Assembly: GCA_973895155.1 (NCBI GenBank)
Contig: OZ316892.1
Location: forward strand, 13,637,270 to 13,701,269
Reading direction: 5' to 3'
DNA from: Marsupella aquatica
Taxonomy: Eukaryota > Plantae > Marchantiophyta
DNA length: 64,000 nucleotides
Of the stretch, positions 11,901-59,700 are shown in pieces. Positions within the stretch are counted from its first letter, which is position 1; every line of letters begins with the position of its first letter. The translations under genes were made by a program, and so were the position numbers. The notes beneath the pieces are model-generated. The model had not been told where the DNA came from, searched no databases, and saw only the letters and a program-made list of their open reading frames with translations.

Positions 11901-14900
11901 GCAGAAGAAATATATCTAGAGAAGCAAGGATAGTTTTTACAAGGTGCAATGCTCGCTATTCCTAACCCGTCTATGTTTTTGTCGGGTTCAGCTCTATGAG
12001 ATTGTTACTCTGGTCAACGAATTGCTGCCACCAATGCCTGAAAGTAGTGGTTCAATTTTTGCATCAACCTCCAATGGTATCAGTGGGTCCAGACTTTCCT
12101 CGAGAAAGTATTCTGCTGTGATAATAAGCTCTGCTAAAACGGACGAAGCTGGGCACGGGACTTCAGGAGAAACAGGCCCTCGGGAAAAGCTCTTACGTGA
12201 ACAACCTGACCTTCTGGTGCAATTCGGGGTGGACCTCTTTCCGGTTTTAGTTCAGGTCAGTCAGTAGCGCCAAGAGACACACCACGTTAATATTGCTTTG
12301 GATCTTTTCTCTGGCTTTTTTATACTTGATGTTAATATTGGGTAGCCTGATTATCTTCTGGCGACATCGTCCTTTACAGGTTTATGGCTCCAGCGTGAAT
12401 CCACCTGTTCGACACAAGTGTCTTGCCGCTATTAATAAGTTGTTACATTTCAGTACGCCTGACATGTTGCGTTCGTTGCTCAAAGAATCGAACATATCAA
12501 GGTAATTTATAGATTCTCTAGGTTCACACGTCTTTCTCGGGTGGCCTCGCCAATTCGATTGCAGAAGTTTCATTCGCTACGAGTCACTAGCCCGGCACGG
12601 ATTGACAGTCTTGTTGGGATGACCTGTACGTGTATTGCAGCTTCCTGGCCGGGGTGCTGGCATCCAAGGATGCATCGATTCTCATCACTGCACTGCAGAT
12701 TGCTGAGATGCTAATGCAGAAAGTGCCAGATGTTTTTGCCAAAATGTTTGTTAAGGAAGGAGTAGTGCACGCCATCGATGTCCTTATAGCTTCAGAAATT
12801 CCGAAACAATCTCCACCGTCCACAGCAGAAAAGTCTGGAGATGCGTCAACGAGTGGTGTTAGTGTAGCACCATCCTCTCAAAGGCCACGCCGAGGGGGTT
12901 CCGGACGGCGACGGTCCACGGGAAACAATAATGACACTGCGACTGTGGAGGAGCCGGGTGGTTCTGGTGCCACTCATATGGGATCACCGTCAAATGTTGG
13001 CCCTGAGCCAGCATTCCGAACCTTGCGGTCAGGACTTAGGGCAACAGCAATTGCGGCAGCCAAGCATTTTAAGGAAACACATTTCTCGGGAGATTCAAGC
13101 CTTACTGATGCAGGGGCCACAGAAAGTCTTCGGAAGTTGAAAACCCTTTGTGCGAAGCTGAACGGTGAGGGAGCTGTAGAAGTGAAAGGAAAGGGGAAAG
13201 GAAAAGCAAAAATTGCTGGAACGTCGTCTCTCAGTGAAGATGATTTGGCAGCAGTGATGTCTGAGATTCTGGCAGAGCTTGGGGGTGAAGATGGAGTCTC
13301 GACCTTTGAGTTTGTAGGAAGTGGAATTGTTGCGTCCCTATTGAATTACTTTGCTGTTGGAAGTGCTCCCAAAGATAAAGCATCTGACCCCAATTTAGTC
13401 AATGTCAGGCAAGATGCCCTGAAGCGATTCAAGCAGTTTGTAGAGCTCTCACTTCCCTTGTCCAGTAGTGGGAAAGAGGCCCCTTTGACCATGCTGGTTC
13501 GCAAATTACAGAATGCTCTCTCGTCATTGGAGCGGTTCCCTGTTGTTCTCAGCCACACACCACGTTCGAACAGTGGGGCCCCTAGTATTACTGCAGGATT
13601 GAACGCTCTTACACAACCTTTCAAGTTGCGACTTTCAAGAGCTTCGAATGAAAAGGTTCTACGGGACTACTCTTCCAAAATTGTGCTCATAGAACCTTTG
13701 GCAACCTTGGTTGCGGTCGAAGATTTTCTTTGGCCTCGTGTTAAGCGGCATGATGCAGTGTTTCCCGCTGCAGCCAGCAGCGCTGCTGACGTAGCGCTCA
13801 ATTCCGTGACACCTGCCCCAACCCCTTCAGTTTCAGCTCCTGTAAGTGTTGAGAGACGTCCGTCCACAAGGTCCAGGGCAGCAGCTGCAAGCGCTACCGT
13901 TTCTGGGAATGAGGAACCAGAGGGTATGAACATGACCACCGCCAAAGGAAAAGGAAAAGCCTTGTCGAGAGGCACTGTTGACAGTGCAGATGATCATCCG
14001 GGCCCGGAAACACGTAATGCCGCTGCTCGGAGGAGAGCTGCAGCCGTGGGAGTTGCTGCTGCCAAACAGGCAATCCAAGGCGTTGGTGCTCAATGTGAAA
14101 GTGAGGTAGGTGTCGACCTCGCTGCTGTATTCCCTTACACCATGTTTTCTGTCGTCACAAAATATCTTTCCATCTCTGGGCTCGAGATAAGTTAAGTTTA
14201 AAATATCAAGTTCATTTTACTGTCGGTGTTGGTTTGTCCTTGCTCCTGAGGAATACTGGCATTAATGCCATCATTTTTACAACCATTTTAATCCAAGTGT
14301 TCTCCTGGACGTACTCTGCTATAAGGTCCGACTCTAAATACAACAGTTTTTATCCGAGGTTTGGTCCGTCCATCCTCACTTCAACTCCTATTCTTATGCT
14401 CTTTGTTCTTGATACCTCATAACAGCACATTACAGTGAGCAATCTCTTCAACTTCCAGATCTGGAGAACTGATCTGGGAAGCGGGATCAAGGTATCTCTG
14501 TTCAGATAAGGGAAACAGACAACTTTGAACGTTGCCTTAACGATGTTTAACTCCTGGTCCGTTAAAATAAATTAAAATTCGGTATCCTGAACAGTACAAT
14601 GAAAATAGTAAGAGAATCAGTTTTTCTTGTCGGGGCGATTATTTTGTACTCGATATAATAAATATCTGAGACTGAAACACGTTTGCAGTGTAGATGACAC
14701 AAGAATGGCTCCTTCCTCACCAGCAACTGAAATTTCGTTGAAGTTTTAAGATTTCACTTAAAACTTGTCTTATACTTGCCACTCAACAGTGTCCTCTCAA
14801 AACAAAGAATATCAATGAGAGTTCCCATTCTTAGCCCCTGATTTGAATACTGAAAGGTTAAGTTGGCTTCAAAATGGGAGGATGGAAGACATTAGGGAGT

Positions 14901-17900
14901 CTGCGAAGCATTCTACCTCAGGAAATTTGCTAATCATTGCCGAAAATAAAGAGCTGAGACCCTGATGGTGTTTTATCTGTGTCTGGCCGTCCTTTGCAAC
15001 GTAAATAGGATGAAGAGTTGGACGCATCTCCGGTGGAAATTGAGGATGCCGTTGCCATGGAGGAAGATGATCTATCTGTAGAGGAGGATGACGAAGATGA
15101 TGATGATCACGAAGAGGTAATCTTTATGTCTTGATCAGCAGGTTGGATGCTTTCGTCTCAGTGCTTTGGATATTTTACTTCAAAATTAGCATGGTAGAAG
15201 TTTTTGATGGCTGACGGGCGTGATGGCACAGAGTGGAGGAAGAGGTGGCCTAGGTCATTAATGGTGGATTACAGGACCACCAATTGTTTAGTCGGTCTAT
15301 CATGTTAAATACAGAGAATGGAAGTAGGGGACACATGATGGCGAAAAATCTTATTTCTTTGCGTGTTGTTGTGTTGAAAGGTTTTCGGTGAGGAGCCAGC
15401 TTCAGGATGTATAGGAGTGCGTGTCCATGATGTAAACGTGGGAGATGGTGGGGATACTGGAACCGCATCAACAAGCACACCTGGCATTGAAGTGGTATCT
15501 CAGCCTTCTGGGTTTAGCTCAGGACTTGCTGGAGTAAGCTTGGGGGGAAAAGGTAGTTTCTTAAGTGGAAGCGACATACCTACCATACGGACCGGACTCT
15601 CGCTGGGTACCAAGGGTTCAATGTCTTTTGCAGCAGCTGCTATGGCAGGGATGGCCTCAGCCAGTGGGAATGGTTCGAGAACAGTTTTGCGCGCGAGCGC
15701 TGCCAATTCCCTTCCAAAGTTGATCTTTTCAATGGGTGGGAAGCCACTGACCAGGTCGCTCACCATTTTTCAAGCCATACAGAGGCAAGCCGTAGCTGGG
15801 GATGATGACGAGGAGGAGCGGTATGCTGGTCCAGACTATCCTCTGGGCGGTGGTAGGAGGCTTTGGGATGAGGTGTATACTATTAACTATCAAAGGGCTG
15901 ATTCATCTGGGGATCAAGTCCCTGCGGGACCTTTAAGTCCAAACACCATTTCTCCGAGTACAGCAGGTGCAGGTCAAAGAGGGGCTATTCATACGTCTAG
16001 TACAGAGAGTTCATGGCAGCAAGCGTCCCTTTTGGACAGTATGCTTGAGGGGGAGCTTCCATGCGATTTAGAGAAGTCCAATCCTACATACAATATCTTG
16101 TTACTACTTCGCATCTTGGAAGGTTTGAATCATCTAGCTCCCAGGTTACGCTTTGAAGGAACTGCAGATTCTTTTGCAGAATCGGGCAATGTGGACAATC
16201 CGGATGGTTGGCAAGTTCCTGGCCCAGTTGTCCCACAGGAAGAGTTTCTAAGCAGCAAGCTTACCCCAAAATTAGCTCGTCAAATGCAGGATGCTCTGGC
16301 GTTGTGTAGTGGTGGTCTGCCTGCGTGGTGTCATCAGCTGACCAGAGCTTGTCCCTTTCTCTTTCCCTTCGAAACACGGAGGCAGTATTTCCATTCTACA
16401 GCTTTTGGACTCTCTAGAGCTCTTCAGCGCTTGCAACAGCAACAAAGTGCGGATGGGCCTGCTCGCAATCATGATCGGGAACTTCGTGTTGGCAGGCTTC
16501 AAAGGCAAAAGGTTCGGGTTGCAAGACATAAGATCCTGGATTCAGCTGCCAAGGTCATGGAGATGTATTCAGGTCACAAGGCTGTATTGGAGGTCGAGTA
16601 CTTTGGCGAAGTTGGGACTGGACTGGGTCCAACATTAGAGTTCTATACATTACTTAGTCATGAGCTGCAAGGGAGTTCTCTAGAATTATGGCGAACAGAT
16701 TCTAGTAGAGATGATGCACATGGTGATGTCGAGATGCCAGATGCAGATGTCGGCCATGTAGATGACAGCTATGCAGCCCTAGGGGTGAACAGTGCTGGCC
16801 TGGACTCTACACGCAGGAAGGGGGATTATGTCCGCGCGCCACATGGCTTGTTCCCTCGACCTTGGCCTCCTGGTGTAGACACCGTTGCAAATGGCAAATA
16901 TGGGAAGGTCATTGAGCACTTTCGGTTACTAGGGCGCGTGATGGCCAAGGCTTTGCAGGATGGACGCATGTTGGACTTGTCCTTATCCGCAGCCTTCTAC
17001 AAGTTAGTTTTCGGAAAGGTAACTTATATTTTCGTTTCCCACATCACTTTTATGTAAGCAGGTCGAGCATCCTTGTTGGAGCGCACCGAAGTTCATTTGA
17101 ACAGGTCATCATCCCACTGAAAAGCATGTGAATTTCATGAGAAACTACTCGAGTCGGGTATTGAAACTCTCTCCATGTGATTCACTAATCAAGAACTTAT
17201 GATATTTCTTGTGCAGGAGCTTGATTCCTATGATATTAGGTCTATCGATCCAGAGCTTGGTCGGACTCTGCAACAGCTGCAGTTATTGGTTTGCAGGAAA
17301 CAGTTTCTTGAGAGTTCCGGAGCTGACACGAAGCAAGCTGTAGAGGCATTGCGGTTCAGAGGTTCGAGAATCGAAGATCTTTGTCTGGACTTTACACTCC
17401 CTGGGTACCCAGACTATGTCCTCAAGCCCGGAGGAGGTGATGAAATGGTATGTACCCCTTGGTGAATATGTAAAATCCCTGCCCAGTGGGAGAGCGCCTC
17501 ATAACACTACCGAAGGAGGAGAACCGAGGCATTTTGTGTCTGCAAAAGTATGTCTTCATTATATCCAATGCACGAGTTCTTTTTCTTTGCTAATATCTGC
17601 GTCCTGTCTTGGGCAGGTGAACCTTGACAACTTAAACGAGTATGTCACATTGGTGGTGGATGCAACTGTCAAAACGGGGATAACTGCGCAGCTAGAGGCA
17701 TTTCGTTCTGGTTTTAACCAAGTACGTTGCGTATTGCTCTCATACATGCCATTAGTCTCTACATCTGATCCCAAAATTGTGAAACTGTTGTACATTCTTT
17801 ACGCGGCCTCCTCATAATGTAGGCTTAAATCCTGGCATCCTTCATATTGCCGGACAGTTTCCTACGTCCGGTGCGGTTTATGAGGATCTGGCCTTGCTTA

Positions 17901-24216: not shown

Positions 24217-25382
24217 TTAAGGCCCGTCTTTGAGTAGATCCATCCACTGAGCAGCTTCCTCCAGAGATTTCCCTGCTCGAGCCAAATCACTGATCACCTG
24301 CATCTTTTTGTCAATTTGTGCTAGGTGGAGTTGATGTTTCCTGTCAACTCGAGCTCGTTTGTTCAGTGCTTCTTCGGCTTGACGTCTGGCTTCCCGTTGC
24401 TCTGCTAGTTCAGCCATTTTCCATTGCTCTTTGCTGTCAGCTTGCTTGCTTCGGTACGCTACTATTTCTTGTAAGTTCTTTGAGTACAAACAGAGGAGAG
24501 TCGTTCTTGGAGTTGGTTTATCAGCCTCACCCAAAGTCGATGCAGACCTGGATCCGGATGCTGGTCCCTTGCGTTTTCCTCTCCTCTGTGCTTGCGAGTC
24601 TTGTTGGTTCTGCGGTGTAGTGTGCGCCTTTGCCTGATGCGTAGGAGATTCAGCCATTGAATCATTTCGTTCCGAGTGAATGGAGAATTCTCCATTGGAT
24701 CATTGTCGTTTAAATCAGAAACCTCTACAATGTCGACTATCGGCAGCTCAATATGAATCCGAAATTCAGGTGCACTAGTGTCACACTCCTCATCGTCGGG
24801 GTCTTCATCCTGGTCCGGGCCTTCATCGCTGTGTGCATCATATTTGTTCGGGACCCCAATGCAACCCTGTGAAGGAGGGTCCATATTGGATCTTCTCCTG
24901 AATAGAGCATCCATTCTCTCAAAATTTGGGCACAAATTTTTGAATTTCTCTTCCCATGTCATGCCCGCACTGAGCTTGAGTTCAGACAATCCTCTGCCTG
25001 ATTGGCCAAGCTCAAGCTTGGCCTTCTTGTATCTATCATGGTACCGTTCCCATTTTTTTCATCACATCTCCATTGAGGTCCGATACATCTTTCCAACCCA
25101 TCCCTCCTAGAGTGACAGCCATGTTCCTGAATGCACTTATCTTGGAGATGAGTTTGCCACCGATCTGAGTCTTCTGACCAGTTCCATAGAGAACTTGAAA
25201 GTTCTCTTTGTTTTCCATGTAATCAAGCATGCGCTCGTATCCATCAGAAGAGATTCTGAACCTCTTTGCCTTTTTCGGTACCCTACATTTGTGAACTCTG
25301 GCAGAGCACTTTTCCCACGAACCATGATCTCATGAAGTTCAACATGAATCGGACTCTCTATCTGAAGGGAATTGATATACAT
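24217..25382 (-). pseudogene. Harbinger-type Myb/SANT-like DNA-binding protein (ORF1), frameshifted
   Basis: Overlapping frames join to DYMENKENFQVLYGTGQKTQIGGK...MKK/WERYHDRYKKAK...SGRGLSE...EEKFKNLCPNFERMDALF..RSNMDPP, followed by an acidic tract and a coiled-coil tail. One frameshift falls at the T-run ~25053-25059. Confidence 0.7.
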
Positions 25383-31800: not shown

Positions 31801-32756
31801 TTCGTTGGGTATGACAGTTCTTTCATTCACAACCATTTGGTCCGGATCAAGTGCTTTGGAGAGTCCTTCAGATCCGCATCGTCTCATCAAGGGAGCTTGT
31901 CACGGATCTGCAACAATGCAGCGTCCCGGCACGTTCGGCGCGTTCCACTCAATCTGCGTCATCAAGCAACTTCGTTCTGTCCTCTTGATCCGTAGCTTCG
32001 ACCGCTCGAGCAGCAGGAATTACAAGATTGCAGCTCCCTGTTTTGACGATGGGAAAATGCAGGGTCTGGCCGTGAGACAGCAGACAGACGTACAACGCCA
32101 TCTTTGTTTCAATTCCTCTGGGCATCAGAATTTTGATTGAGGCAGCGCGAGTGTCAGTGCGCGAGGCAGAGAGAGCGAGACGTCATGCTTCCGAGTCCCG
32201 ACCGTTCCCGCTCCTTTCCTCACGGCGGGCTCGCGTCCCGCGGTCACGGTGGGCCTCATTAATAAATCCACCCTCCTCTTGCCCTCGTGCTTTAATAACC
32301 CGCACTTAAGTACTGTGAGACACGGTGCCTTCGCGGGATGCGCTCACTGCTATTATTTTACGGCTGTTCTTCGGACTTGTAATTAGCCGCAGGGCTTAAC
32401 TCGCCGCGTACCTACTGTCAGTGTCCACCACCTTCACAGACGGGAATGTTTCAGCCAAAGCAGATTCACGCATGACGTTTGACTTGCAGACATGTGAGCC
32501 AGAGGCGTCGTTTTTTCATTTTCATTTTCATTTTCATTTTTTTCACTTTCTGTACACTGCTGATGCGTCGGAAAGTAGTATAGACGATTGTAAGGAAGGA
32601 ACAATCGTCTTCTGTTCTTGGCGGCCGTGTTTCTCGAGCTGGGCTGAGCTGAGCTGAGCTGAGCTGATCGATCAGTCATCAGCGACTACTGTGGGGGAAA
32701 ACCTGGCCGTCGTACTGCTGCAGGAGAAGGCAGACAATCTCAATGTTGGTCCTCGA

Positions 32757-32879
32757 ATGATGATGCGTCGCCCTCCATCGTCAGCTCGGCGACACCAGGC
32801 TCCCACTCGACAGCACTGGCTGCGGACGACATTTCTCCCACAATTTGGGTCACCGAAACTGATGGGGGGGCTGGTTTGA
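32757..32879 (+). promoter_or_regulatory. Upstream ORF (40 aa, starts ATGATGATG) ending 11 nt before the predicted main ATG
   Basis: MMMRRPPSS...MGGLV*, in a different frame from the ATG at 32891. Assumes transcription starts upstream of it. Confidence 0.45.
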
Positions 32880-32890
32880 AGGTTCTGGGA

Positions 32891-35890
32891 ATGCCGATGC
32901 CAATGATACGCATGGCGACAAACGACACGCCTCCGCCGCAGGGGTTCTGGAGTACAGTCCGTGGTATGCTTCCAACCTGTCAGCTTTACCGCCCATGAGC
33001 CCATCCATCAGCTGATCAGCCCCCCGCCCTGGCGATGGTTTGTCATCCACTGCATTTGCATTGTGGTTGGCTTTTTCCTCAAATTTAGAATGTCTGTGTA
33101 CTGTGCGCTGAGTGGCTGAGTGTCTGAGCAATTGTGTGAGACTGTGAGCGTCTCGCCGACAGTCCAGGAAATGGTTGTGAGCATCGGAAGGACTCGTGAT
33201 AACTTTTTATGATGAATGAATGAGGAAACTCAATCGCTTTAAGGCTGAATCTAGATGATAATCTGTCTGGTACTTAAGTACTGAAATGTGGAAAGCGCCC
33301 GAGGACGTAGGAAAAGTGAGAAATCTGAGCAGCAGTCTGGCAATTGTTTTCTGTAAGGTGAATATCTTAAGCCTGACAACGTGATCGGTGGCTTTTGTGG
33401 TCCCCACTGTAGTGTGTGGCGCTAACCCTTGGTATATGTTATCGACGAAGATGTTGTCAGATGTAATCGAAAAGATGGCAAAAGGTGGCAATGCTCTCGG
33501 GAAGTGGTTCCGGGCCAAAAGTACTGTGAACGGCATGTCGGTAGGGGTCGGAACCGGCCCAAGCGTTCGACTGAAGGCTACTCTGCAACCTCTGATGTTC
33601 CTGCCACTCCCTCACTGGGCGCGATTTCTTCTGTCAGCATGGCAGCAGCAGCTCAAGGCGTCCTGTCCGGTGCGGCGTACAATAAACTTCAGCTGCTTTC
33701 GCCTCTGCCGAGCGATCGACCGAATCTGGTATAGACCTACTTCAAATCACGCCTTTTCCCCAACCACGGGAAACTCTTAAGATTTTCACTAGGTTTGCAT
33801 CAGTCGATGATGCTCTGATGTTGGATACACCCTGGCTGTGCATCTTGCTCTCGAAGACTTCCCATAGGAAAAGACAACATTAGTAATGATGTGCACGGCA
33901 GAGCAGAACGCTTCCCAGACTTCGATTTGGGTGAAGATGTTGCCAGACCATGTTACCCTCGAAAGGTATCTGCGGGCTCTTCTTCAGTTTGAGTACCCGA
34001 GCTTGACGATCCAACGGCCAAATTTCTCATGCGCCGGGAGGGGGTGGGGTCTGTCGTAGTTTTGTACCGTGTCTCCGGTTGACAGATGTCTTGAGCTTCG
34101 TAGAAACGTGAATCAATCTGTTGCCTCCTTTTGCCCCTTGCGCATCATCACTTACTGACATTGATGGTATGTTCTGGTTGTGCATTCAGTGGCCATGCGA
34201 TTCAAGTCATGGTCTCGTTCCATCGGCTTCGTCCTCTCAGGTCAGTCGAGAGCTTCCCGTCCGGGCAGCAACTCTGCCAAGCCGCTTTGAGAAAGCAGCC
34301 AGGGTGAAGATCCTCTATGACAGAGTCCGGTACAACTTCCCTTACTTCGATCCCTCTGTTGGGAAGGACAACCCTGTCTTCATGGAGAATGCCGGGGGCA
34401 GCCAATGTCCAGACGTGGTAATCGACGCCATAAGCAACTACATGAAGACCTCGTATGTGCAGCCTGGAGCTGGGTACGACATCTCTACCAGAGCCAACGA
34501 AACTGTGAAAGTTGCACACGATCACATGAAGACTTTTACCAATGCACATGGGTTTGGCGAGGTGGTTTTTGGACCATCCACGTCCCTGTTGATGACGAAT
34601 ATCAGCAACTGCTATAGTTATGTTCTCCAGGAAGGAGATGAGGTGATCATCCACGAGGCAAACCACGAGGCTAATGTGTCCCCTTGGTTGAGAATGGCTG
34701 CAAGATGTGGAGCATCTATCAAATGGTGGAGAATCAACTATGAAACTTTTGAATCGGACATCGACGATTTGGCCCACCTTCTTTCTCCTCGCACTAGAAT
34801 TGTGGCCGTGCCACACGTGTCGAACATTCTCGGAGAAATATTGGATCTAGGAAAGATAGTCAAGGTGGTAAAGTCGAGGATTTATGAATGTCCAGTTCGT
34901 GTGGTCGCTGACGGAGTTGCATATGCGCCTCACCGGGCTGTGGATGTGGCAAAGTGGGGGATTGACTGGTATGTGTTCAGTTCTTATAAAGTATATGGTC
35001 CACACATGGCAGTGCTCTTTGGTACACACGACGCGTTCACGGACATTCAAGATCACAGTCCCAATTGGAGTTTGCTTGCTACCGATGACGTGACTAAAAA
35101 GTTCGAACTGGGTGGTGTTTGCCATGAAGCATGTGCTGGAATAGTTGCTCTGTCTCAGTACTTCGGAGCTTTGGCTAGGATTGGAGAGGCCTACTCGTTG
35201 TGTTCTGAAGGAGGTAGGAATGGGCTCCAACATGCTCCAGGGAATGGTTTGGTTGCTCAAGCAGAGAACGGAGGCTTTACACTGTTCGACTCTACTTGTA
35301 AAGCTGAGGATGCAACAAATATGTCTCCAGTGCCCGAACGGACACTAAAGAGCCTGGGTGGAGTGTCGCTGGATCTCCAGGCTGTGCCCGAAGAATTTTT
35401 GGAAGATATGGCATCCTCATCTTTGAGTGATTGGGAGGATGCATTGCAGGGCACGACATTTGGCCAGGAAGCCATAGGCTTTGGTGAAACAGTATCAATT
35501 CGCCCAGAACGTGTAATAGTTGAGGCTGCATACGACACAATCAAACTACTAGAGCAGCCATTACAAGAAAAGCTTCTTGCCTTTCTGAGGTCCAGAAACG
35601 ACGTCATCATCTTCGGTCCCAAATCGTCTGGGGCAGATTTCAGAGTTCCAACCGTTAGTTTTATTCACAAAACGAGGAATTCCGCAGACATCTCGCGAGC
35701 TTTGCAAACTGCAGGCTTCGCTGTCCGGCACGGAAACATGTACTCTTTTCGTCTCCTCTCAGGTTTGGCATCCCAGAAGAAGCTAACTGTCAACTCTCCC
35801 GATGATGGAGCCGTGAGGATATCTATGGTACACTACAACACTCCCATCGAGGTAGCGCGCCTTACAGCATGCTTACAATCAATTCTATAG
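32891..35890 (+). CDS. WRC zinc-finger / class-V PLP-dependent (cysteine desulfurase-like, VC1184-type) fusion protein, ~696 aa; exons 32891-32963, 33451-33669, 33868-33965, 34190-35890
   Basis: WRC: RCNRKDGKRWQCSREVVPGQKYCERHVGRGRNR (C-x9-C-x10-C-x2-H). Enzyme motifs: FMENAGGSQ, NHEANVSPW, DGVAYAPH, FSSYKVYGPH (PLP Lys at 34988-34990), VRISMVHYNT. GT-AG introns of phase 1, 1, 0 keep one frame (2091 nt). The enzyme domain is certain; the fusion splice is inferred. Confidence 0.8.
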
Positions 35891-36052
35891 AATTTTTACC
35901 TACGTGGAGAGTTTAATTACCAAATAGCCTCAAATGTTCGCCCGTAGATTTGGTGTAATATGGCTAGAACCAAGATATTAGAAGTACCTCTTGCACAACC
36001 TGAAACGTTGGTTCTTTGTGCTAAGGAGTGTAGGCTTTAGGGTTAAAGATAT

Positions 36053-36193
36053 CCCCTCCTGGAGCAGTTCGAAGTAGGAATAACACATACCTTAGAAGTA
36101 CCAAGCAACTCTCAATACTGTGCACAACCCGGAACGTTGGTTCGTTGGTTCTTTTTGCTAGGGAGTTCCTACTTCGTACTGCTCCAGGAGGGG
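36053..36193. repeat. Inverted repeat: 28-bp arms (1 mismatch), 85-nt spacer
   Basis: cccctcctggagcagttcgaagtaggaa (36053-36080) pairs with ttcctacttcgtactgctccaggagggg (36166-36193). Confidence 0.9.
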
Positions 36194-36628
36194 TTATGTT
36201 ACCGAGTAATGTTGGAACATCGAATAAAGCTGTTTCTTCATTGATATCTCCAGAGAATTTTCGCTTACAGACGTCCGTCGGAAAGGTGATCATGCATATT
36301 TGGAGTTCATATGCACTAGCCTTTGAGCACTCAAGAATTGCAATCTCACCGTTTGAGTTTTAGTTCCCAAGAACTACATCTCACCGCTGCAATATAATAG
36401 AAGTAACTCGTAGGCTCACAGTCCAGGACCCAAACTTCGTCTTGGCATCACAAAGGATCAGAACAGCCTCACACTAAAAAATGTCTGGAAATCATTGAGA
36501 CAAATTGAATAGCAATGCATATTACGGGTGCACCGGGAAGACAATCGATGTATACAAGGGCAATACTCACATTGGAGTGGGATTATGATACACTTTCTCA
36601 AGAGCACGAGAAGAAAATGTACAAATTA

Positions 36629-39600
36629 TTACTGTTGCCGTTGCCTCTTTAATCTAGCCATTGCGCCCAATTTCTCCTCAGGGTCTGCCTCTCTCTTTCC
36701 TTCTCTACTTACAGCATCAGCACCCTCTAGCGTTATACTTGCAAGTCCCCCATACACACCCTCGGGCACAGCCTTTTGAGAGATATCCACACCTACGTCC
36801 TCCTCTTCTTCACTCTCTTCCTCCAATTCAATCTCATCAGGGTTCAGTGCTACACTACGTCGAGGACTAGTGTCTTTCTGCCCCTCTACTCCTCCACTAA
36901 TAAATCCTAGAGATCTCATGCCTTCCTTCAGAGGACTTCTTGGTGGGGCAATTTGCCTCTCGAGAGCTGCCATCTCATCTTCCGGAACACCAGCGCGCTT
37001 CAGAGTATCCACAGCTTCCTCAAGAGAGACATTGCCAGATTCTCTTTGCATTAAATATTCCGGTAAAATAAAATGCATCTGCAACACAGTTTACAGGTCA
37101 GTCGGTAACATTACATCATGTGTCATTTCAACCACCAAGACAAGCTAGAAAGCAGAATAAAAACTCTTAACATTTACAGACATAGGTGCTAGATGTAACT
37201 CTACATTGTCCGACCTCAATCATTTAGCGAGTGCCAATTTACCTGACTGTAACTTGCAGATACACTTCGTTTGATGCGCAGCATTTCACGAAAAGTATCC
37301 TCATTGCCGTGCTGCACCTCAAAATTATTCCATTTGCTCCAAAAGTCCGAGTCAGATCGTGGATCCGACATTTGTGCTGCATGTACATATATTGCACGTG
37401 CTCTGTCTATTTCTCCCAGGTTCCGCTCCAGCTCGGCATACTTCAAACACATCACCTTCACATCTTTGTCCGGTAGTCCCGACTGAATCGCAAGCTGAAA
37501 ATTAACGAAAAGGTGTGAGAACTGATCATTTCCTTTGATGAAGAAAGTTGACTACACGCAAGCTCCACTCAGAAGTAAGAACACATGATTACTAGCAAGC
37601 ACCATTTATGCAATGTACTAATCAAGAGTTGAAGCCGGACACGAGAATCAAAAGCCCAGCTGACAACACAAACCTCGTATATTTTCCGGGTTTTAGGAAC
37701 TCCAAAGAATTCTGCAGCTCGAGCAATGTAAATCTCATAGATGCTGATCTTCTCAGAATCTGCAACAGACTTTGTTGCCCTTTCGTATACAACCATGGCA
37801 TGTCGAGCAAGTCCGAAGTCCTCTTCCAATTTCGCATACTGAAGGTACAATGGCTTTGCATCTTCTGGTGGTACCTGTAAAATGCAAGGGTTCCACCACA
37901 TATTGCATTAGTTCATCGTCACCGGAGATCATTTACAACACAACATCCCCATGGACACCATAGAATTAACGCTTCACTGGCTGTAACCTTTAAAGTGGGA
38001 ATTTCCTCCTTTTCTCTGCTTCTTACAAGTCCAAAGTTGCAACCCTGTCCATTCTTTCATGCCCCTGGTCTCTTCAGCTTATACATAGCATGATTCCCCT
38101 CATCAGTCAGACATGCACATGAGCTGAAGCAATGTCACCACAGGGAGAGCAATCTATGTGATGGCTGTGCATCATTTGTGTAGCTTCTCTATACATTCTT
38201 GCGTCAGAGCTTATTTCTCCATATATAACAATACTGTGCATTGCATTAAACAATCAGACGCTCGTGGATTTTCTCTAACATGTTACGTCAACTTACGCCC
38301 CTGGTATAATATTGAAGCTCTTGGCTGGCCAATTTCTACAATTCCCTACAAACGACTGGAACTACTTCCTATAACATAGCACTCCGATTAGGTTAACAAT
38401 AGAAGTGGGCAGAATCCAATCAATTATGCTTTGATTTATTGCAAGGTCATTTCTGTTACACACGTACCTTCTCAACTGCCTGCTCAAATAAGTCACGGGC
38501 ACGCTCCAACTTCTTTGCTCCATATCGGGAAACGAACTTCAGCAAGTATGTCGTCCAGATTTCTCGAACATGGGGATACTTAAAAAGTCGAACCCCCCGT
38601 TCATAAACCTTGAAGGCATCTTCGAAGTACTTGTTACTCTGCACGAGACAATCAGGTTCAAATAAGTGACTGCCTACAGCAGCAGGTTGAATCTGAACAT
38701 GTCTCAATCAATACAATGCTGCCTCTTCAACCTAAAAGTTATTGCCCTACACTCCCAGATCTCCGCACAGAAGTTCGAAATTATCATAAGCGGATTGATT
38801 TATATACTCTGGCTCAAGAATGGTAGGGGGCTCGGAACATTACCTCTAGCATGTACGCATACTGCAAAATAATTTGTGGTGTGGCTATTTTGAGATCTAA
38901 AATGCGCTCGTATAATTTCCGCGTTTCCTCAAGTGTGCCCAGACTCTCTTCCAGATCCACATAAAATGTCCAAAGCTTCAAAGATCTGTACACGCGCATT
39001 TGGACCGGTTCCTCCCCCAGCGTAGCAACTGTATTTCAAAGCAAATAGGACAGTTTGTGGGAGTCAGCTCAGATTTCTTTGACTTCAAATGACTCAAAAG
39101 TCCTGACCATCTCTGCTCCAAACAGGGTGCAGAGAAGGAACCTCTACAGAACAGTTCAAGCAGGATCGCATGCAATGTAGACTCAAGATAATGGAAAGAA
39201 GTGAGAGAGGCAGGAATTTAAAAAACCGCAGATTTCTGGCATCCTTAGAAGCTCTGGATATCATACGAAGTATCTCACCTGTTCTTTTCACCTGGACTGA
39301 TGGTTCTGTGGTTGCTCGCCACATAAGATTGAGCGCACCCTTGAAGTTTTTATGGCGAATGAGCATCTCTGCCCACTCACACCAAACTGTTGCTAAATCA
39401 TCCACTGCTTTGAACCCGACCTGGACAGCTTTGTCAAAAATCTTCCCAGCATTGACGATGTCCTGGTGAGTTTCATAGAGTTTAGCAAAAGCAACCCACA
39501 ATGTATGTGGCTTTCCAACTGCCTTAAAAGGATCCACTGTTCTGACAGCCTCCGTGTAGGTCAAAATTTGGCGAGTAGGATTGCCTTCAAATAGCTTCAC

Positions 39601-40827
39601 TCTCTTATGCCATTCGTGTACGTTGTGTGGATTTTGCCTCAACAAGACACTACTGACCAATTCAGGTCGACGATTCATAAGGTGTTCAAACCGTGCAAGT
39701 CTCAAATCTATGTCATCCTCATCTTTCCGCCAGAAATCAGGCCAAATTTCTTTTTCCCATCGCTCTAACAAATCCTTTCCACTCTTGTCCTTTGCTGATT
39801 TCGAATCCATCATGATCCCGTCTTCAGCCGCAAGCGCTTGACCGTTCTCATGGTGGTTCTCATGCGACCCTCCATCGTGGTCCTCGTCTTCTCCATTCGC
39901 TTCTATACTCTCTATTTTTGCTGTAAGCAAACTTTCCTCAAATTGAGCGTAGGCATCAAAAATTGTACTGAAATCCCTCACGGTAACTACACTTGACATA
40001 CCCTCTTCAAATACGTCTCTTGCCTTTTCGAATAAACTTCTCCTAATGTAGTAATCTGCCAGAGATGTCCAAAGGCGGCCCACTTCGTCCGTGAACCTCC
40101 GAATTCCACCTCGAATGATCGCATCGACCTGCAACCCAGAAACCTCACTCGCATGCTTGGTTAGCAGATTACAAAGCTCTAGCCAGAGCTGATGCCGCGA
40201 CTTGCCCTTCACTGAATGGAACGTCTCGTCATTCAAAACCTGCGCCAGCTTCTCCGCGGCTTCTTGCCAGAGCTCAGAAGCGAGCAAAAAGTCGATAAAC
40301 TCCTCGACGTGAGTTGGATCGAATTTGAGATACCTGCGGTAAACCCTAAGAGAGGTTTCTATGGGTATCCCTGGCTGACCAACAAACTTCACGTAAAGTT
40401 CCCAGATGCGGTCATGTTGAGTCACAGGCAGAGAACACAAAGCTCTGTCGAACGTGCGCCTTGCCCTAGTGAGGTACTTCTGCTCCGTAAGAGTCTGCAG
40501 GTACAGAATCCAAATTCTGGGCATTTTGTGCATAGTAACCAGGGCACGCTCGAAGGTGTTATTGACATTCTCGTACGCAGAATGTGCCACTGGAAGTCCT
40601 CGCACTCCCTCTAGCTTCTCCCTCAAATACCGATACCATAACTTGTAGCTGCCAGGCAAGGCTTTCAGAGCTCGCTCAAATAAAATGGATCGTTTCTTGA
40701 CGGGGGCCTCGCGCCGAGCTTGCAGATAGCGCCACCATAGCTTCAGGCTGAACGGATTTCTCAAAATCTCCTCCTCGTAGACCAAATCCTCCTCCGCTGG
40801 GTACAAATCTTGCGGTATTGACGGCAT
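36629..40827 (-). CDS. SYF1: Pre-mRNA splicing factor SYF1/XAB2 (HAT-repeat protein), 6 exons: 40827-39279, 39028-38844, 38638-38468, 37874-37674, 37494-37243, 37078-36629
   Basis: DLYPAEEDLVYEEEILRNPFSLKLWWRYL, ERALKALPGSYKLW, LLRQNPHNVHEWHKRV, FEVQHGNEDTFREMLRIKRSV, NPDEIEL. GT-AG introns in phase. In-frame upstream ATGs (40866, 40917) make the start uncertain. Confidence 0.95.
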
Positions 40828-41626
40828 CTTTCTTCCTTTCGGGTGACTGTCACTACTCATGGACATCACTCCTTCTCCATCTCCTCCTAGCGCCTCCTTG
40901 TGAACATGACCCGGCATCACTTTCTCACTTTGCTCCAGCTGTCAAACCAAACCCGCAGAGCATCGCATCGCATCGCAATGCACTACTATCAATTCCCACT
41001 ACAGTCGACAAACAATAATGGGCATGTCAAAACTACATTTCTCGGTGAAATACGGGTAAGGGAAAGTGTGAACACTTTCACGAACATTCGTTCGACAACA
41101 TTGAATTAAACCCTAGATCGCACATCAGAAACCGAGGGGCACAGACCCGTGGTTACTTTCTAGCTCATAACTGTGTGATCTTTGGTCGGAATGAAAAGAT
41201 GGTGGGCTCGTTACAAAGCTGCCTTCATTCCGCTTCTAATGAGCTATGGTAACTAGTCAGCAGGTTGATGTAAGCGAACATATATGACTCGAAAATCGGT
41301 GACGGGAAACTTGACGGGGAATCGCAAACAGAGGTATTCCGTCCGTGAGGGAGCACGGATAATCCCTGAAGAAATAATAATAATAACTCCCCCCCTTTTG
41401 AGTTCTTCCTTCCTTCTTTTCCGTCTGACTCTCCTTACACACGGGGAAGTGTCAGGCAACCAGGCTTCCCATAGTGCTGCCCAGAAATCCTTGGCCCCCC
41501 ATGAGAAATGAAGAAAAGTAGTACAGTTGATTCTAAATGTGATCCTAAATCGCAGTCACAAGTGAGCCTTGTTGAGTAAAGATTAGATTCACAATGGCAT
41601 GTCCATGTACACTTAATGAACAAGTA

Positions 41627-45593: not shown

Positions 45594-46215
45594 AAGACAG
45601 AGGATCGAGCACAAATCTCGACCGAAGAAGTCTCTGGAATCGTTGCAGGGCAGAGCTGTGAGCCTCTCGATTACTACACGGGAAGGTTGACGAATCATTG
45701 CGCGGAATCTCGAAATTTATATGGAGTGATTGTGTGGTGTATGAGTTCTCTCTCGGGTTCTAGCTGCGAACAAGGGACTGACTGTGATGCACGAAAGTTT
45801 CTCTTCGTGTGAAGGCAACGAGCTAACTCAAGTGCTGTACTCTTGGCCACCCCGTACTTACCCCTGGGTTTCATTTGCCGGAATTGATGCGCAGCGGTGG
45901 GCGAGATACAGTCCAGTGGATCCCACGAGAGCATAATTTTCAAGATCATTTATCAGTAGTCAGTGAGACCGGAAGGGCCTGAGTGATTATAGTTCAGACC
46001 GTGCTCTCGTTCCAGTATGCTGCATCCATTTCTTGTTTGAGTTGGATTTGATTGGATTAGATTAGATCAAATCGGCAGTGAGACAATCGCGACGCAGCAT
46101 TTTAAGACTTTTGAGTGCTTGCCTTCTGTGCATTCATTCGACTTCACTTTCTGTAACTCTCTTTCTCTCACGCACACACACAGAGGGAGCTGGTGGAGGA
46201 GAGACAGACAGAGAG

Positions 46216-47391
46216 ATGGCACTGGAACGGAGCAGGAGGAGTAGTGACGGGGCTATGATAGATATAATTTTTCTACTGGGGATGATGATGTCTATGTATG
46301 TGATGCTGCCGGCGGGTGTGAGGGCAGAAGAAGCCGCGGTGAAGCCTGACCTTGCCGTAATTGAAATGAAGGTACCAAATCTGTACCCAGAGAGCTTCGA
46401 TTGGGATGCCAAGCACAAGAGATTCCTGGTAGGTTCCACAAGTCTGGGGCGGCTGGTGACTGTCACGGAGGAGGGCGTGGTGGACGACTTCGTCAAGGAT
46501 GAAGAGTACGCTGATGCCGGAGCAATGATCCTAGGCGTGACGGTGGATTCTATCCGCAACCGTGTGCTCGCTGTGGTGCACAAAACTGCGGATCCGCCCG
46601 ATGGACGGCCCATTGGTGTCGTGGCTGCTTATGATCTCGACTCGAAGAAGAGAACTCTCTTTGTGAATCTTCTTGAGGAGGATGAGGATGGCTCGATAAT
46701 CGGCACCGAAAAGTTTATGGCTAATGATGTAGCCGTGGATGACAACGGCAACGCCTACATCACCAATTCTTTGGGCTATTCGATCTGGAAAGTGACCCCA
46801 GAAGGTGTCAAGAGTGTATTCGTTGACTCGGTTCCTCAGCTGCCAATCGCGGTGGAGGTGGAGGAGTTCCAAAAGGGCGTCACATTGAATGGCATCGTGC
46901 ACGACGACGGCTACCTCCTCATTTCCCAGAGCAATTCGGGAGCTCTCTTTAGGGTTAGACTTGCCAATAAAGAAGTACAGGCAGTGAAGATCAAGGAAGG
47001 AATAATGATGCCGGGAGCGGACGGCATGGCATTGCGACTGGATGGGTCGCTAGTGGTGATATCCATGCACACCGCCTATTTGCTATCTAGTACGGATTCC
47101 TGGCGGTCTGCCACCGTGTTGGATAAAGTTCCATTGGATTCAGCAGACTTCAGCACTAGTGCAACTGTCGTCAATGACTTGCGTGTCTTCACCATCCATC
47201 ACCATTATCTCGATAGGTTGAACGGAGTGGACCGGGACTCATTCAAAATTCTCGAGATGGAGTTCCCTCATGATTTGAACGACAGTCCTCTTTGGCTCTT
47301 GGCGGTTGTAGGTATTTTTGCCGTTCTCATACTTGCCTGGAAATTCCAGTTGAGTCAGTTCAACAAGGAGTACACCAAGAAAAGAGTTTGA
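46216..47391 (+). CDS. Single-exon SMP-30/gluconolactonase-like (calcium-dependent phosphotriesterase superfamily) beta-propeller with signal peptide and C-terminal TM anchor
   Basis: NLYPESFDWD, ANDVAVDDNGNAYITNS, LNGIV, GADGMALR. Hydrophobic N-terminal segment, C-terminal TM (LWLLAVVGIFAVLILAW) and KKRV* end. Confidence 0.88.
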   Translation: MALERSRRSSDGAMIDIIFLLGMMMSMYVMLPAGVRAEEAAVKPDLAVIEMKVPNLYPESFDWDAKHKRFLVGSTSLGRLVTVTEEGVVDDFVKDEEYADAGAMILGVTVDSIRNRVLAVVHKTADPPDGRPIGVVAAYDLDSKKRTLFVNLLEEDEDGSIIGTEKFMANDVAVDDNGNAYITNSLGYSIWKVTPEGVKSVFVDSVPQLPIAVEVEEFQKGVTLNGIVHDDGYLLISQSNSGALFRVRLANKEVQAVKIKEGIMMPGADGMALRLDGSLVVISMHTAYLLSSTDSWRSATVLDKVPLDSADFSTSATVVNDLRVFTIHHHYLDRLNGVDRDSFKILEMEFPHDLNDSPLWLLAVVGIFAVLILAWKFQLSQFNKEYTKKRV

Positions 47392-51322: not shown

Positions 51323-51961
51323 TCAAGTTTTCGCCCATGAAGGCTTTTGGCGATTCTTTTTCTTTTTCCAGAATTTCTTCCCACCCGCCTCCTTCTGCTC
51401 TTGGATCTGGAGATACTTCCGCTTCCGGTACGTTTGGAGAGAAGAATCGGTGAGCAGCTCGTCAGCAAAAGTCGTTTTGCGCTCCTTCTTCGTTAGCCGT
51501 CCAGAGTAGAAGTCCGCCGCCCCCTCCACGACGGTTCCGACCTGAAAAAATTTGGGAGTGGCCTTAGAGTCATTGGCCTTGTAGTGGCGCTTGGGGTCCA
51601 ATACACCTCGCAGCCTCAGAAGCTGTAGCTCCTGCTTCATCTCAGGCGTCATCGTGGCAGCTGGCATGTCGAACCATTTCGATCCTGCAGTCTCTCTCAC
51701 GTTCTTCTTCTCCACTTTCTTCTGCTTGCGGGAATCGACGGGCGGAACTAGTAGCCCATCAACGAGGTCGTTTCCTTTCTCTTTCTGCCATACAGAGCTC
51801 ACAACAGGCAGCATCTTACTGACCAATGCATCGACATGTCCAGAAGCATTGGATCTTCTTGCAGCTGACGATCCTCCTCCTCCTCCTCCTCCTCCTCCTC
51901 GTCCTACGAATGGAAGTCCCGTGTCGGGCTTCCAGGAAACATTCATCGCCGCTGCAGCCAT
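51323..51961 (-). CDS. FCF2: rRNA-processing protein Fcf2 (DNTTIP2-like C-terminal domain), intronless
   Basis: TAGSKWFDMPA, ELQLLRLRGVLDPKRHYK, PKFFQVGTVVEGAADFYSGRLTKKERKTTFADELL. Confidence 0.93.
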   Translation of the reverse strand: MAAAAMNVSWKPDTGLPFVGRGGGGGGGGGSSAARRSNASGHVDALVSKMLPVVSSVWQKEKGNDLVDGLLVPPVDSRKQKKVEKKNVRETAGSKWFDMPAATMTPEMKQELQLLRLRGVLDPKRHYKANDSKATPKFFQVGTVVEGAADFYSGRLTKKERKTTFADELLTDSSLQTYRKRKYLQIQEQKEAGGKKFWKKKKNRQKPSWAKT

Positions 51962-52384
51962 TTGTTCCGACTACCAACGATCCACCATCCCCAGAAGTGA
52001 CCAAATCTCTTACGCGAATGCTTCCGTCGTCAAGTATGCTCACAATTTAGGGCTTTGCGGCGAAACCACATTCCCGTAGATCGGACGTGAAGTACCTCAT
52101 CGAAAATCCGCGCAAAACTTTCCAATCGAAGCAGAAATGGATCCTTGAATCGCTGCCTCTGTCACCCTTTGTTTCGAGCATACCCTTTCTCTTTCTGCCA
52201 TACAGAGCTCACAACAGGCAGCTTCTTACTAGCCATCCTCCTTCTCTGGCTCTATCGGAGATGGTGCTCTGCAACCACCTGGTGGATGGGTTCAAAGCTC
52301 CCCTTCAAAACCGAAATTACATTGTCGTGCACTAAAGATTTCATTGCACAAAGATGTCATTTGCAAAAAAATGTTTTTTCAAAA

Positions 52385-55640: not shown

Positions 55641-55999
55641 AGTGAGGCGGAAGGGAAAGCACGGGACGCCTGTCCGTTGCTTCGTGTTTCGCCCGAAGAG
55701 AATCAGCCTCGAGGGAGAGGCGGGACCGCTGATTTTCGCAAGACGGATTGTAATTTTGGGAGCCGATGTTCTGTAGAGCTGCCCAAAGCAACATTGCGGA
55801 GTAGGTTACTGAGAACCCAGGGGATCGCTTCGCATCAAGCACCGATGAGCACTCGAAAAAATCGGAGGAAAAGTGTTCGGCTTGAGTAGACGAGTAACAG
55901 TAGGTAGACACAGACGCACGAGACGAAGAAGGGGTGAGGGATTGGAACATATAGGTATCACAGAGGCCGACAGAAGTGTTGGGTGCACGGAGGGCGAAG

Positions 56000-58900
56000 A
56001 TGTCTTCGCTTCTTCACCGGCGATACCCTCTCCGAGTGATTTTGAGGCGATCGCTCGGTGTAGGTCCTCGATCTGCGAGAGGATTGGCTTCAGATTTCGA
56101 TGTAATCTCGAGAGGAGCAGAAAATGGCAGCGGAGGACAATTGGGGCGTAGGCTTTCGGCAATTGCGTGGCGCTCAGGAGTACTTGGGAGGCATTCCAAT
56201 GGCTTCTCGGCAAAGGAGACGCAGGTGGAGAGCTGGATTACGGGGAGCCGATCGCAGCTGGGCGGAGTTCGCCTTGCGGCGAGTGTGGCTGTGCAGCAGG
56301 CTCCGGGGCCAAGAGTTCCGAAACCGGAGGATATGATCGAAGTGAGCGTGGACGGGAGTCCTGTGAGTGTTACGAAAGGGATGACCGTGCTGCAAGCTTG
56401 CGAGGTTGCGGGAATTGACATTCCCAGGTTTTGCTATCATCCGCGTCTGTCGATTGCAGGCAATTGCCGCATGTGCCTCGTTGAAGTTGAGAAGACGCCT
56501 AAACCCGTGGCCTCCTGTGCTATGCCCGCGCTTCCAGGTACTGTCCCTCTTCTGGACTCTTGCTCTGCTCGGGGTTTGTTAAACTTTTGCCGTACCTGAT
56601 TAATGAAGATGAGCAATTCTAACGACACGATTGCGTGATGTACCGATAGGAATGAAAATCAAAACTCTGACTCCGCTCGTAAAGAAGGCAAGAGAAGGGG
56701 TCATGGAGTTTCTACTCATGAATCATCCGCTGGACTGCCCGATCTGCGATCAGGGTGGAGAGTGCGATTTGCAAGATCAGTCCATGGTTTACGGATCGGA
56801 TCGGGGGCGCTTTATTGAATCCAAACGGACAGTGGTGGACAAAAATCTGGGCCCCTTCGTGAAAACAGTCATGACTCGATGTATTCAATGCACAAGGTTT
56901 TCCCATTCCTCCCAACTTGTCGTCTCGCCCCAAATGTTCCCCAAATTCTTCTACTAGACTAAGCATTTCCTTAACAGGGCTAGTTTTAAGATTGTTTTCT
57001 GGCATTTGGTCTCCACGTAGCAATGGAAAGATCAGCTCGAGTGAGCTGGCATTTCAGAGGATGCTCATTCTGTGGCAAGTATAGTCGAGGTTAGGGTCTC
57101 GTATTGAGCTTCGTATACGTGTACATTTATATACCTGGATGTCGGATTTCATTTTCCCAACTCTGTCTAAAGCCTGCTACGGTATGGCATCTTCTCTGCA
57201 GAATTGTATAGTTTGTGCTGGTCATCCGTCTCAAATTTGCAGCAAGTTTTGATGACACGGGATAAATGTATCTTCGACACGATTTTCTGAGTTTTTGTGT
57301 ATTTCTGTGGCCAGAATAGTAGCGGTTTTCTCAGTGATTTTTTTCTTCCAGTAGAAACCGTCACCGGGCCTGGACATTGTCTGACTAGTTGTGCTGATCC
57401 TCTTACGGAGCAGGTGTGTGAGGTTTGCCACAGAGATTGCCGGAGTGCAGGACTTGGGTGTCTTGGGTCGCGGGGGTGCTGAGGAGATTGGAACATATGT
57501 TGAGCGCCTAATGACCAGCGAGCTCTCAGGCAATGTTATTGATATCTGTCCAGTTGGGGCCTTGACTTCAAAACCGTTTGCTTTCACAGCGAGAAGCTGG
57601 GAATTGAAGAGCACTGAAAGTATCGATGTCACGGATTCTACTGGAGCCAATATTCGAATCGACAGTCGTGGCCCGGAAGTGTTGCGTGTCCTTCCTCGCC
57701 TGAATGAGGTCTCCCTCTTTTCTCCAGTCAACTCAACCTTCTTTTTCGAATAGGAGACACTGCTCCCGGGCTCTGGTTCGTGGAGTAGCAAGAATATCAA
57801 AATATCCTTCCTCAGAAACATTCAACCAGAAGATCTGTTTCTCTGTTGTTCATGATAGAATCTATTTTGAGAAGTGCAGGCTATTCATTCGTAACACTGT
57901 TTACTTTGATGGTGATTTTCGTACTATAATCAACTTTGTGAATGAGTCTCGACTCTGAATTCTGACTAGCCAGAGTTGTTCTTTGTGTATTAGGAAGTTA
58001 ACGAAGAGTGGATATCAGATAAAGCTCGATTTTGTTATGATGGCCTTAAACGACAGAGGCTCAATGAGCCAATGATCCGTAGTGCAACTGGACAACTGCA
58101 GCCAGTTACGTGGGCTCAAGCTCTCAAAGCTGTTGCAGAGGCTGCCATCAAAACAAAGCCAAGTGAGATGATGGGTATAGCGGGAAAGCTCTCGGACGCT
58201 GAATCAATGATCGCATTAAAGGATTATCTGAACAGGCTGGGCTGTGAAAGACTTCAAGTCGAGGGAAATGGTGAAAATCCTGTTGCTGATCTTCGCTCAC
58301 ATTATCTTGTCAACTCCACTATAGCAGGCCTGGAGCAAACAGATGTAGCTCTGGTGATTGGCACAGAGGTGAGAAGAAAACCTGATTGATGGCATTTCCC
58401 TGTATGGCGCCCTAAATGGCTTGTGTGAATAAGTGTATGATTATCTCGTGAACGCCCATTGTTTGTTGTTGTGGTATTCCGTCCGTTCAGGGCCTGGGGT
58501 CTATGGCCGTTATATTTCTCCAAACCTGTGCACGGACGTGAAAATCTGCATATCTCCTTCTAATGCATAACTAACTTAACTTCCCAGCAATTGTCAGCAA
58601 GTGGTGTATGATTAGCTGTCGAGAATGGATTTCCAAGTTCACTGACCAATATCTGAGCTCGCTATTGCATTTTAAATAAAGTAGATTCTTCTCTCCAAGG
58701 TTGAGAGGTCGAGCGGTGATGACTCTTTGTATTGTCCTTATGGTGTCCGATTAGGGCTAATTGACTTGTGTTGACTTTCGTTTTTTTGCAGCTCCGGATT
58801 GAGGCTCCGCTACTGAATCTGAGATTGAGAAAATCTGTTAGGACTGCCGACACAAAAGTGGGTGTTATCGGCCCTGTCCAGGACTTGCATTATGAATTCG

Positions 58901-59700
58901 AGCACTTGGGAACCACCACTGAAGCTCTGTTGGCAGTAGCACAGGGTCAACATCCATTCTGCAAAAAATTGTTTAAAGCAAAATATCCCAGTATTGTCGT
59001 GGGTTCTGGCGTGCTGCAGCGCAAAGATAAAGAAGCAGTTCTTGCTGCTGTCCAGAAAATTGTCGAGGCGGCAGGGGTTATCAGGGACGATTGGAATGGC
59101 TACAACTTCTTGCTTGTGAATGCTGCGCAGGCTGCTGGACTTGATCTGGGATTTGTATCTGGCGCTAGAGCTCAAGCTGGGGACAAGAGTAATATTAAGT
59201 TCTTATACCTTCTAGGGGCAGATGATCTGACACCAGAAGATATCCCTGAAGATGCATTTGTGGTCTTTCAAGGTCATCATGGTGACCGAAGTGCGTACAG
59301 AGCTAATGTTATTCTTCCAGGTGTTGCTTTTACAGAAAAAGAAGGAACATATGCGAATGTGGAGGGACGTACACAAACAACCCGACCTGCTGTTCCCACT
59401 GTCGGTGATGCTCGAGATGATTGGAAAATTGTGCGTGCTCTGTCAGAGGTCACCGGAGTTACGCTGCCGTATGATACAACGAATGCGGTCCGTGCTCGCT
59501 TACTTGCAGTCGCACCTAATCTATTCAGATTGGATGGATTGGAGCCTGCCATTCCATTGCCTCGGAGTAGTTTACCGGACCCAAAAGCCAAGTTGGCTTT
59601 GTCACCTTTCCAGAAAGCCATAGACAATTTTTATATGACTGATTCTATCACCAGAGCATCAAAGAATATGGCTCAGGCCACAGCAGCATATTCAAGCTAA
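56000..59700 (+). CDS. NDUFS1: Mitochondrial complex I 75-kDa Fe-S subunit (NDUFS1/NuoG/Nad11), 5 exons: 56000-56537, 56650-56896, 57414-57708, 57994-58368, 58792-59700
   Basis: Arg/Ser-rich presequence; [22 protein letters not shown]; [19 protein letters not shown]; [13 protein letters not shown]; [10 protein letters not shown]; [11 protein letters not shown]; [11 protein letters not shown]. Confidence 0.97.

Follow-up and report, generated by a model that had tools for sequence, protein, structure and literature searches.

Bacterial regulators of the MocR/GabR type, such as GabR of B. subtilis, carry an N-terminal DNA-binding-type domain, a flexible linker and a C-terminal fold-type I PLP domain. 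In GabR, dimerisation and sensing reside in the aminotransferase-like domain, whose catalytic activity is described as not essential (PMC6522883). The WRC zinc finger is known as the DNA-binding and nuclear-signal domain of the plant GRFs (PMC7380329, PMC6507847), a family whose membership needs both QLQ and WRC (PMC7380329, PMC10795294). WRC is also frequently swapped between proteins and occurs in 26 architectures, many of them uncharacterised (PMC6507847).

On the enzyme side, the closest solved proteins by sequence are two stand-alone fungal biosynthetic enzymes, the retro-aldol lyase Fgm3 (PDB 9x4u; E 5e-64) and the decarboxylative aldolase UstD (PDB 7mkv; E 2e-35). Fgm3 cleaves 4-hydroxy-arginine (PMC10967133). 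A related class V protein, Rv3778c (PDB 3cai; E 4e-23), lacks the PLP lysine and is called likely noncatalytic (PMC12910592).

Here we describe a gene in the window (the whole 64,000-nucleotide stretch of Marsupella aquatica DNA analysed) that places a WRC finger ahead of a class V PLP fold. It shares the layout of MocR/GabR, although its N-terminal domain is a WRC zinc finger and not a GntR helix-turn-helix (WRC is the only Pfam domain at the N-terminus), its PLP domain is of class V whereas theirs is of class I, and it is eukaryotic and of independent origin. With GRFs it shares the C-x9-C-x10-C-x2-H finger; unlike them, it has no QLQ and no miR396 site, four of its finger residues are changed, and a PLP fold is attached. 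Its likeness to Fgm3 and UstD lies in the enzyme part, in sequence and fold alone; no gene cluster surrounds the liverwort gene, and the His of their pocket loop is Trp in the liverwort protein. Nothing on this His was found in the available part of the UstD paper. The missing lysine of Rv3778c is matched in the liverwort genus Riccia, but Rv3778c is bacterial, stand-alone and without a DNA-binding domain.

Gene structure and transcript support

The fusion gene has three coding exons and encodes a protein of 683 aa with both domains in one frame (Table 1). An earlier sequence-only reading had joined the domains through four exons into a 696-aa frame. Those exons do translate without a stop, but the supported exons give the shorter product. 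Where that reading had placed two introns (33670-33867 and 33966-34189) around a 98-nt bridging exon, contigs and homologues support one intron, 33729-34189. By tblastn, the Calypogeia fissa protein covers 33450-33728 at 96% and picks up again at 34190, and no match to the bridging exon (33868-33965) came from any of seven homologues at E values up to 10. This exon is no better than chance, because 82 different stop-free GT/AG bridging exons are possible within the same gap. A TAG at 33734, considered as a possible end of the WRC exon, falls within intron 2.

Contigs from two runs, X1 and X2, were used to follow splicing; both runs are from related species (<95% alike to the window) and not from M. 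aquatica, and their RNA origin is only guessed. An X1 contig spans 32676-32962 (13 gap letters) and then joins exon 2, skipping intron 1 as the sequence-only reading had drawn it, with 74 letters on the shorter side. Intron 2 is skipped in an X1 contig with 234 letters on the shorter side (461 nt, GT..AG), and in a second X1 contig this donor is likewise followed by exon-3 sequence, the X1 matches ending at 33727. An X2 contig match stops at 33728 and continues with 29 letters like the start of exon 3, a hint only against a bar of 31 letters. An assembly or annotation artefact was ruled out: two DNA runs near-identical to the window (X3 and X5) are unbroken over the intron-2 donor, and the fusion is found in five other species. 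The spliced contigs of relatives, together with orthologues annotated in five further liverwort species, support finger and enzyme as one protein.

The 3' part of intron 1 (33239-33450) also aligns with contigs of both X1 and X2, two other species. One X2 contig matches 33293 to 33728, unspliced across the intron-1 acceptor, and 33239-33383 is spanned by an X1 contig. This part may be a retained intron or a second, internal start; judging from the sequence, Met88 is a possible start of a WRC-less isoform of 596 aa. At the other end of the gene, Calypogeia gene models have ~110 additional N-terminal residues, partly matching 32415-32456 and 32765-32890, an extension that may be an annotation artefact because Marchantia and Riccia start later.

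Table 1. Features of the fusion gene and of the genes around it, in window coordinates
Feature	Position	Strand	Basis or remark
TRIP12/UPL3-type HECT ligase	8916-17817	+	
Coding exon 1	32891..32963	+	aligned with Marchantia and Riccia protein N-termini; X1 contig
First in-frame ATG	32891	+	further ATGs at 32897, 32903, 32912
Intron 1, 487 nt, GT-AG, phase 1	32964..33450	+	skipped in X1 contig
Coding exon 2: WRC finger, basic tail, first part of linker	33451..33728	+	tblastn, X1 contigs
WRC zinc-finger motif C29-x9-C39-x10-C50-x2-H53	33462..33536	+	PF08879; codons checked
In-frame Met88 after WRC finger	33639..33641	+	Met in 9/9 fused proteins
Intron 2, 461 nt, GT-AG, phase 0	33729..34189	+	X1 contig joint; Calypogeia protein uninterrupted across
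Coding exon 3: rest of linker and entire class V PLP fold (TIGR01976/Fgm3-like)	34190..35890	+	PF00266
Lys384, predicted PLP Schiff-base lysine	34988..34990	+	aligns with Lys of Fgm3 and UstD
PLP-fold insertion, about 117 residues (441-558)	35159..35512	+	alignment with unfused homologues
Stop codon	35888-35890	+	
SYF1 splicing factor	36629-40941	-	
Fcf2	51323-51970	-	
NADH dehydrogenase 75-kDa subunit	55955-59700	+	

The gene neighbourhood in the window is not a pathway cluster. It also holds a 441-aa ORF with a hydrophobic N-terminus (46066-47391, +) and two overlapping ORFs of 160 and 198 aa (24217-25058, -), none of which has a Pfam match at E 0.01. A strong hairpin lies 3' of the stop codon on the plus strand (36041-36204; 35-nt arms, 91% complementary, -74.4 kcal/mol, z -7.2) and is covered by an X1 contig of the fusion gene. 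It has no Rfam match and no second copy within the window, and could be a 3' UTR structure, a small-RNA precursor or a small transposon remnant.

Distribution and origin of the fusion

Proteins with WRC followed by a class V PLP domain are annotated in Calypogeia, two Marchantia species (Marchantia orthologue Mp4g21870) and two Riccia species. The sequence-only reading had allowed that the architecture might already be annotated with a known function; it is indeed present in UniRef/NCBI, but only without a function, as "WRC domain-containing protein" or "hypothetical". In a search with the enzyme part, the combination of WRC and PF00266 was found in four clusters among the best 120 of 845 matches, all from liverworts, with Calypogeia at 89% identity to the window. 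The members of these clusters extend the list to M. paleacea, R. fluitans and a second copy each in Calypogeia and R. sorocarpa. When the N-terminal region was the query, the same four fused clusters were recovered among 118 candidates. Overall, the finger was present in nine of 250 enzyme-side proteins, all from liverworts, and the enzyme in none of 149 other WRC proteins.

In a tree of 54 selected enzyme domains (other fetched rows were excluded), the fused proteins form one clade of seven rows with support 100/98. It is nested within a land-plant clade (100/99) that also takes in Sphagnum, Diphasiastrum, Ginkgo and Cryptomeria; relatives from algae and bacteria fall outside that larger clade. 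The moss, lycophyte, gymnosperm and algal orthologues have no WRC. Based on this topology, we infer that the enzyme descended within the green lineage and acquired its finger a single time, before leafy and complex-thalloid liverworts split, an event dated to >400 million years ago. Several unfused copies were seen in gymnosperms, with two in Cryptomeria and three neighbouring gene numbers in Ginkgo (P0008, P0327, P0010, P0157, P0158).

Among the best 120 matches listed, many of them unnamed, neither an unfused copy from a liverwort nor any flowering-plant protein is named; both enzyme searches scored ~8000 candidates, so the absence of such proteins is provisional. On these sequences the fusion appears to have taken the place of the stand-alone gene in liverworts. 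It may also be the sole source of the enzyme activity there, since the full catalytic set is kept and no unfused liverwort copy is named.

The WRC finger

The WRC motif noticed in the sequence-only reading is a clear match to PF08879 (63.9 bits against a cut-off of 28.6; E 1.1e-17). Over residues 25-62, the Calypogeia protein shows 100% identity to that of the window, and the Marchantia and Riccia proteins show 95%. Across liverworts, identity is higher in the finger (95%-100%) than in the enzyme part (68%-91%), with the linker at 41%-90%; both the finger and the enzyme part are demonstrably under selection. The closest overall matches are GRF fingers, with up to 25 identities in the core. Four positions that are 97%-100% invariant among 69 GRF fingers are changed here, including the Arg of W-R-C, so a DNA target would probably differ from that of GRFs. 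In its second half and in the basic tail the sequence follows the GRF pattern; the first half of the finger looks like that of multi-WRC proteins and of second fingers. Six large proteins of the multi-WRC kind have four or five fingers (P0179, P0182, P0183, P0186, P0188, P0193); neither motif scan nor Pfam detected QLQ in them.

A true GRF was rejected on the lack of QLQ: as the sequence-only reading had seen, PF08880 is absent from the upstream ORF, and it is absent also from four full-length orthologues. Marchantia's single MpGRF is a separate gene (Mapoly1350s0001). The miR396 site is absent as well, the stretch after WRC being 11 mismatches from miR396; this was given no weight, as the available literature leaves liverwort miR396 unsettled. 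A PDB search with the finger sequence gave no matches at E 10. In the model of the Marchantia orthologue, residues 1-110 have low confidence (finger pLDDT <50). A complex prediction of the WRC part with the PLP part, made without an alignment, scored 0.00 and is not counted as evidence.

The PLP fold

The ORF at 34112-35890 had been assigned to class V, and Pfam agrees (PF00266, E 2.3e-50, against E 0.011 for PF00155, class I). The top NCBIfam family is TIGR01976, with stand-alone orthologues in Sphagnum, Diphasiastrum, Ginkgo, Cryptomeria and green algae. The nearest bacterial matches bear its cysteine desulfurase-like name. The window protein departs from this family in its fusion to WRC, its longer insertion with an acidic motif, its pocket changes and its score, which stays below the cut-off (291 bits vs. 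352, in two stretches divided by the insertion). It keeps 110 of 118 positions that are at least 90% conserved in 117 unfused homologues. The neighbours of 80 bacterial loci showed only antisense shadow ORFs and lineage-level synteny, with no common pathway.

Cysteine desulfurases carry the catalytic-loop motif RxGHHC. The desulfurase Cys is absent from the C-terminal loop of the window protein (Tyr635 region), and scores are far below the family cut-offs (SufS, 178 bits vs. 475; IscS, 37 vs. 643); SufS and IscS were therefore rejected. The PLP lysine motif and the adjacent Tyr/His residues align with Fgm3 and UstD. The Marchantia model is confident in the fold (390/676 residues at pLDDT of at least 90) but not in the insertion; with this model, Foldseek gave SufS and UstD as top rows, and Fgm3 was not among the matches listed.

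In liverworts the insertion measures 117-132 aa, compared with 12-91 aa in eight unfused homologues. It closes with a conserved acidic, aromatic stretch that, in an alignment of 20 sequences, is confined to the fused proteins. Two changes near the predicted pocket, His410Trp and Tyr420Lys, are common to all eight liverwort sequences (8/8). The first is not specific to the fusion, because position 410 is also altered in gymnosperm orthologues.

Loss of the catalytic lysine in Riccia

Lys384 is present in 117/117 unfused homologues, the window, Calypogeia, Marchantia and four X1/X2 contigs of relatives. These four contigs encode the full predicted catalytic set, and 43 of the 53 codons that differ in them leave the amino acid unchanged. 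In all three Riccia proteins (3/3; two species, gene predictions), position 384 is Thr, and Tyr635, which is Tyr in 116/117 unfused homologues, is Gly. The Riccia proteins nevertheless keep 110-113 of the 118 conserved positions, comparable to the 110 of the window, among them Asn184, His276, Asp358, His389 and Arg660; the rest of the pocket is thereby retained. The Riccia stem branch in the enzyme-domain tree is short (0.064).

From these residues, a PLP aldimine can probably still form in M. aquatica, Calypogeia and Marchantia, which may also keep some lyase activity, and the Riccia form would be a pseudoenzyme. Catalysis thus looks dispensable in one lineage. The comparison with GabR is limited by the same change: GabR-style covalent aldimine sensing is ruled out in Riccia by the lysine loss, which argues against it as the universal mechanism of these proteins.

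Discussion

The fusion is real, conserved and uncharacterised. No description of it was found in a literature search that excluded subscription journals and the Marchantia genome and atlas supplements, and the Marchantia gene (Mapoly0090s0035) was not found in the available part of a published Marchantia transcription-factor list (PMC6174852 supplement).

The protein may well be a gene regulator, because Riccia lost the catalytic lysine and kept the rest. Fold-type I PLP proteins are dimers. The reading we favor, at somewhat under an even chance, is a dimeric nuclear regulator in which the PLP fold is a dimerisation and ligand-binding module, convergent with MocR/GabR and not a member of that family. 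The dimer would present two WRC fingers to paired DNA sites, and the main tasks of the enzyme fold would be finger pairing and small-molecule binding. Binding or output might be tuned by PLP or a PLP-amino acid adduct occupying the pocket, and the acidic insertion may contact co-regulators. The MocR/GabR-like idea, raised in the sequence-only reading, is plausible and is strengthened by the lysine loss in Riccia. Its fullest form is possible but doubtful: a eukaryotic counterpart of MocR/GabR evolved independently in liverworts, a transcription factor whose captured class V lyase fold would detect vitamin B6 or an amino acid, with Riccia a step from enzyme to pure receptor.

Alternatively, the protein may be an active PLP lyase that cleaves a C-C bond in a modified amino acid in the manner of Fgm3/UstD and is imported into the nucleus or chromatin-tethered by WRC, with a later local loss in Riccia. 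The best solved relatives fit such chemistry, the predicted catalytic residues are all kept in the window, Calypogeia, Marchantia and the four relatives' contigs, and the mostly silent codon changes in these contigs and the seeming replacement of the stand-alone gene agree with it. Since most liverworts keep the catalytic set and seem to be without another copy, a nucleus-tethered lyase remains likely enough to be weighed seriously. Yet pure catalysis does not explain a whole domain and a 95% identical finger in Riccia without the lysine, the near-invariance of 38 finger residues exceeds the needs of a nuclear signal, and neither the neighbours in the window nor the 80 bacterial loci suggest a pathway. 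On balance, we hold this lyase, with its local loss in Riccia, to be on the unlikely side.

The contigs over the 3' part of intron 1 raise another option, that one gene makes a long nuclear WRC form and a short enzyme-only form from Met88, through intron-1 retention or an internal start. Met88 is shared by all fused proteins, and a 565-aa WRC-less ORF of Marchantia type is known (P0124), which, however, may be an ORF call on unspliced DNA. The X1 and X2 contigs say nothing about transcript starts or levels and could derive from partly spliced RNA, the 29 exon-3-like letters that follow the unspliced X2 stretch fall short of the bar, and five out-of-frame ATGs precede Met88 in exon 2; we regard two products as improbable. 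More improbable still, in our judgment, is that the finger, by binding protein or RNA instead of DNA, brings the PLP fold into a complex. The four altered GRF-invariant positions and the many uncharacterised WRC architectures would allow it, but the finger's second half and the basic tail are like those of GRFs, and DNA binding is the sole WRC activity reported in the available parts of PMC7380329 and PMC6507847.

Returning to the dimeric regulator, what is at stake is a lineage-defining gene fusion that is present in the model plant Marchantia (Mp4g21870). The green-plant parent enzyme family has no assigned substrate either, and the lysine-less form of Riccia offers a natural comparison between enzyme and pseudoenzyme. 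If the PLP pocket regulates genes, this would be a direct amino-acid- or vitamin B6-sensing transcription factor in a plant, a type that, to our knowledge, is known from bacteria only.
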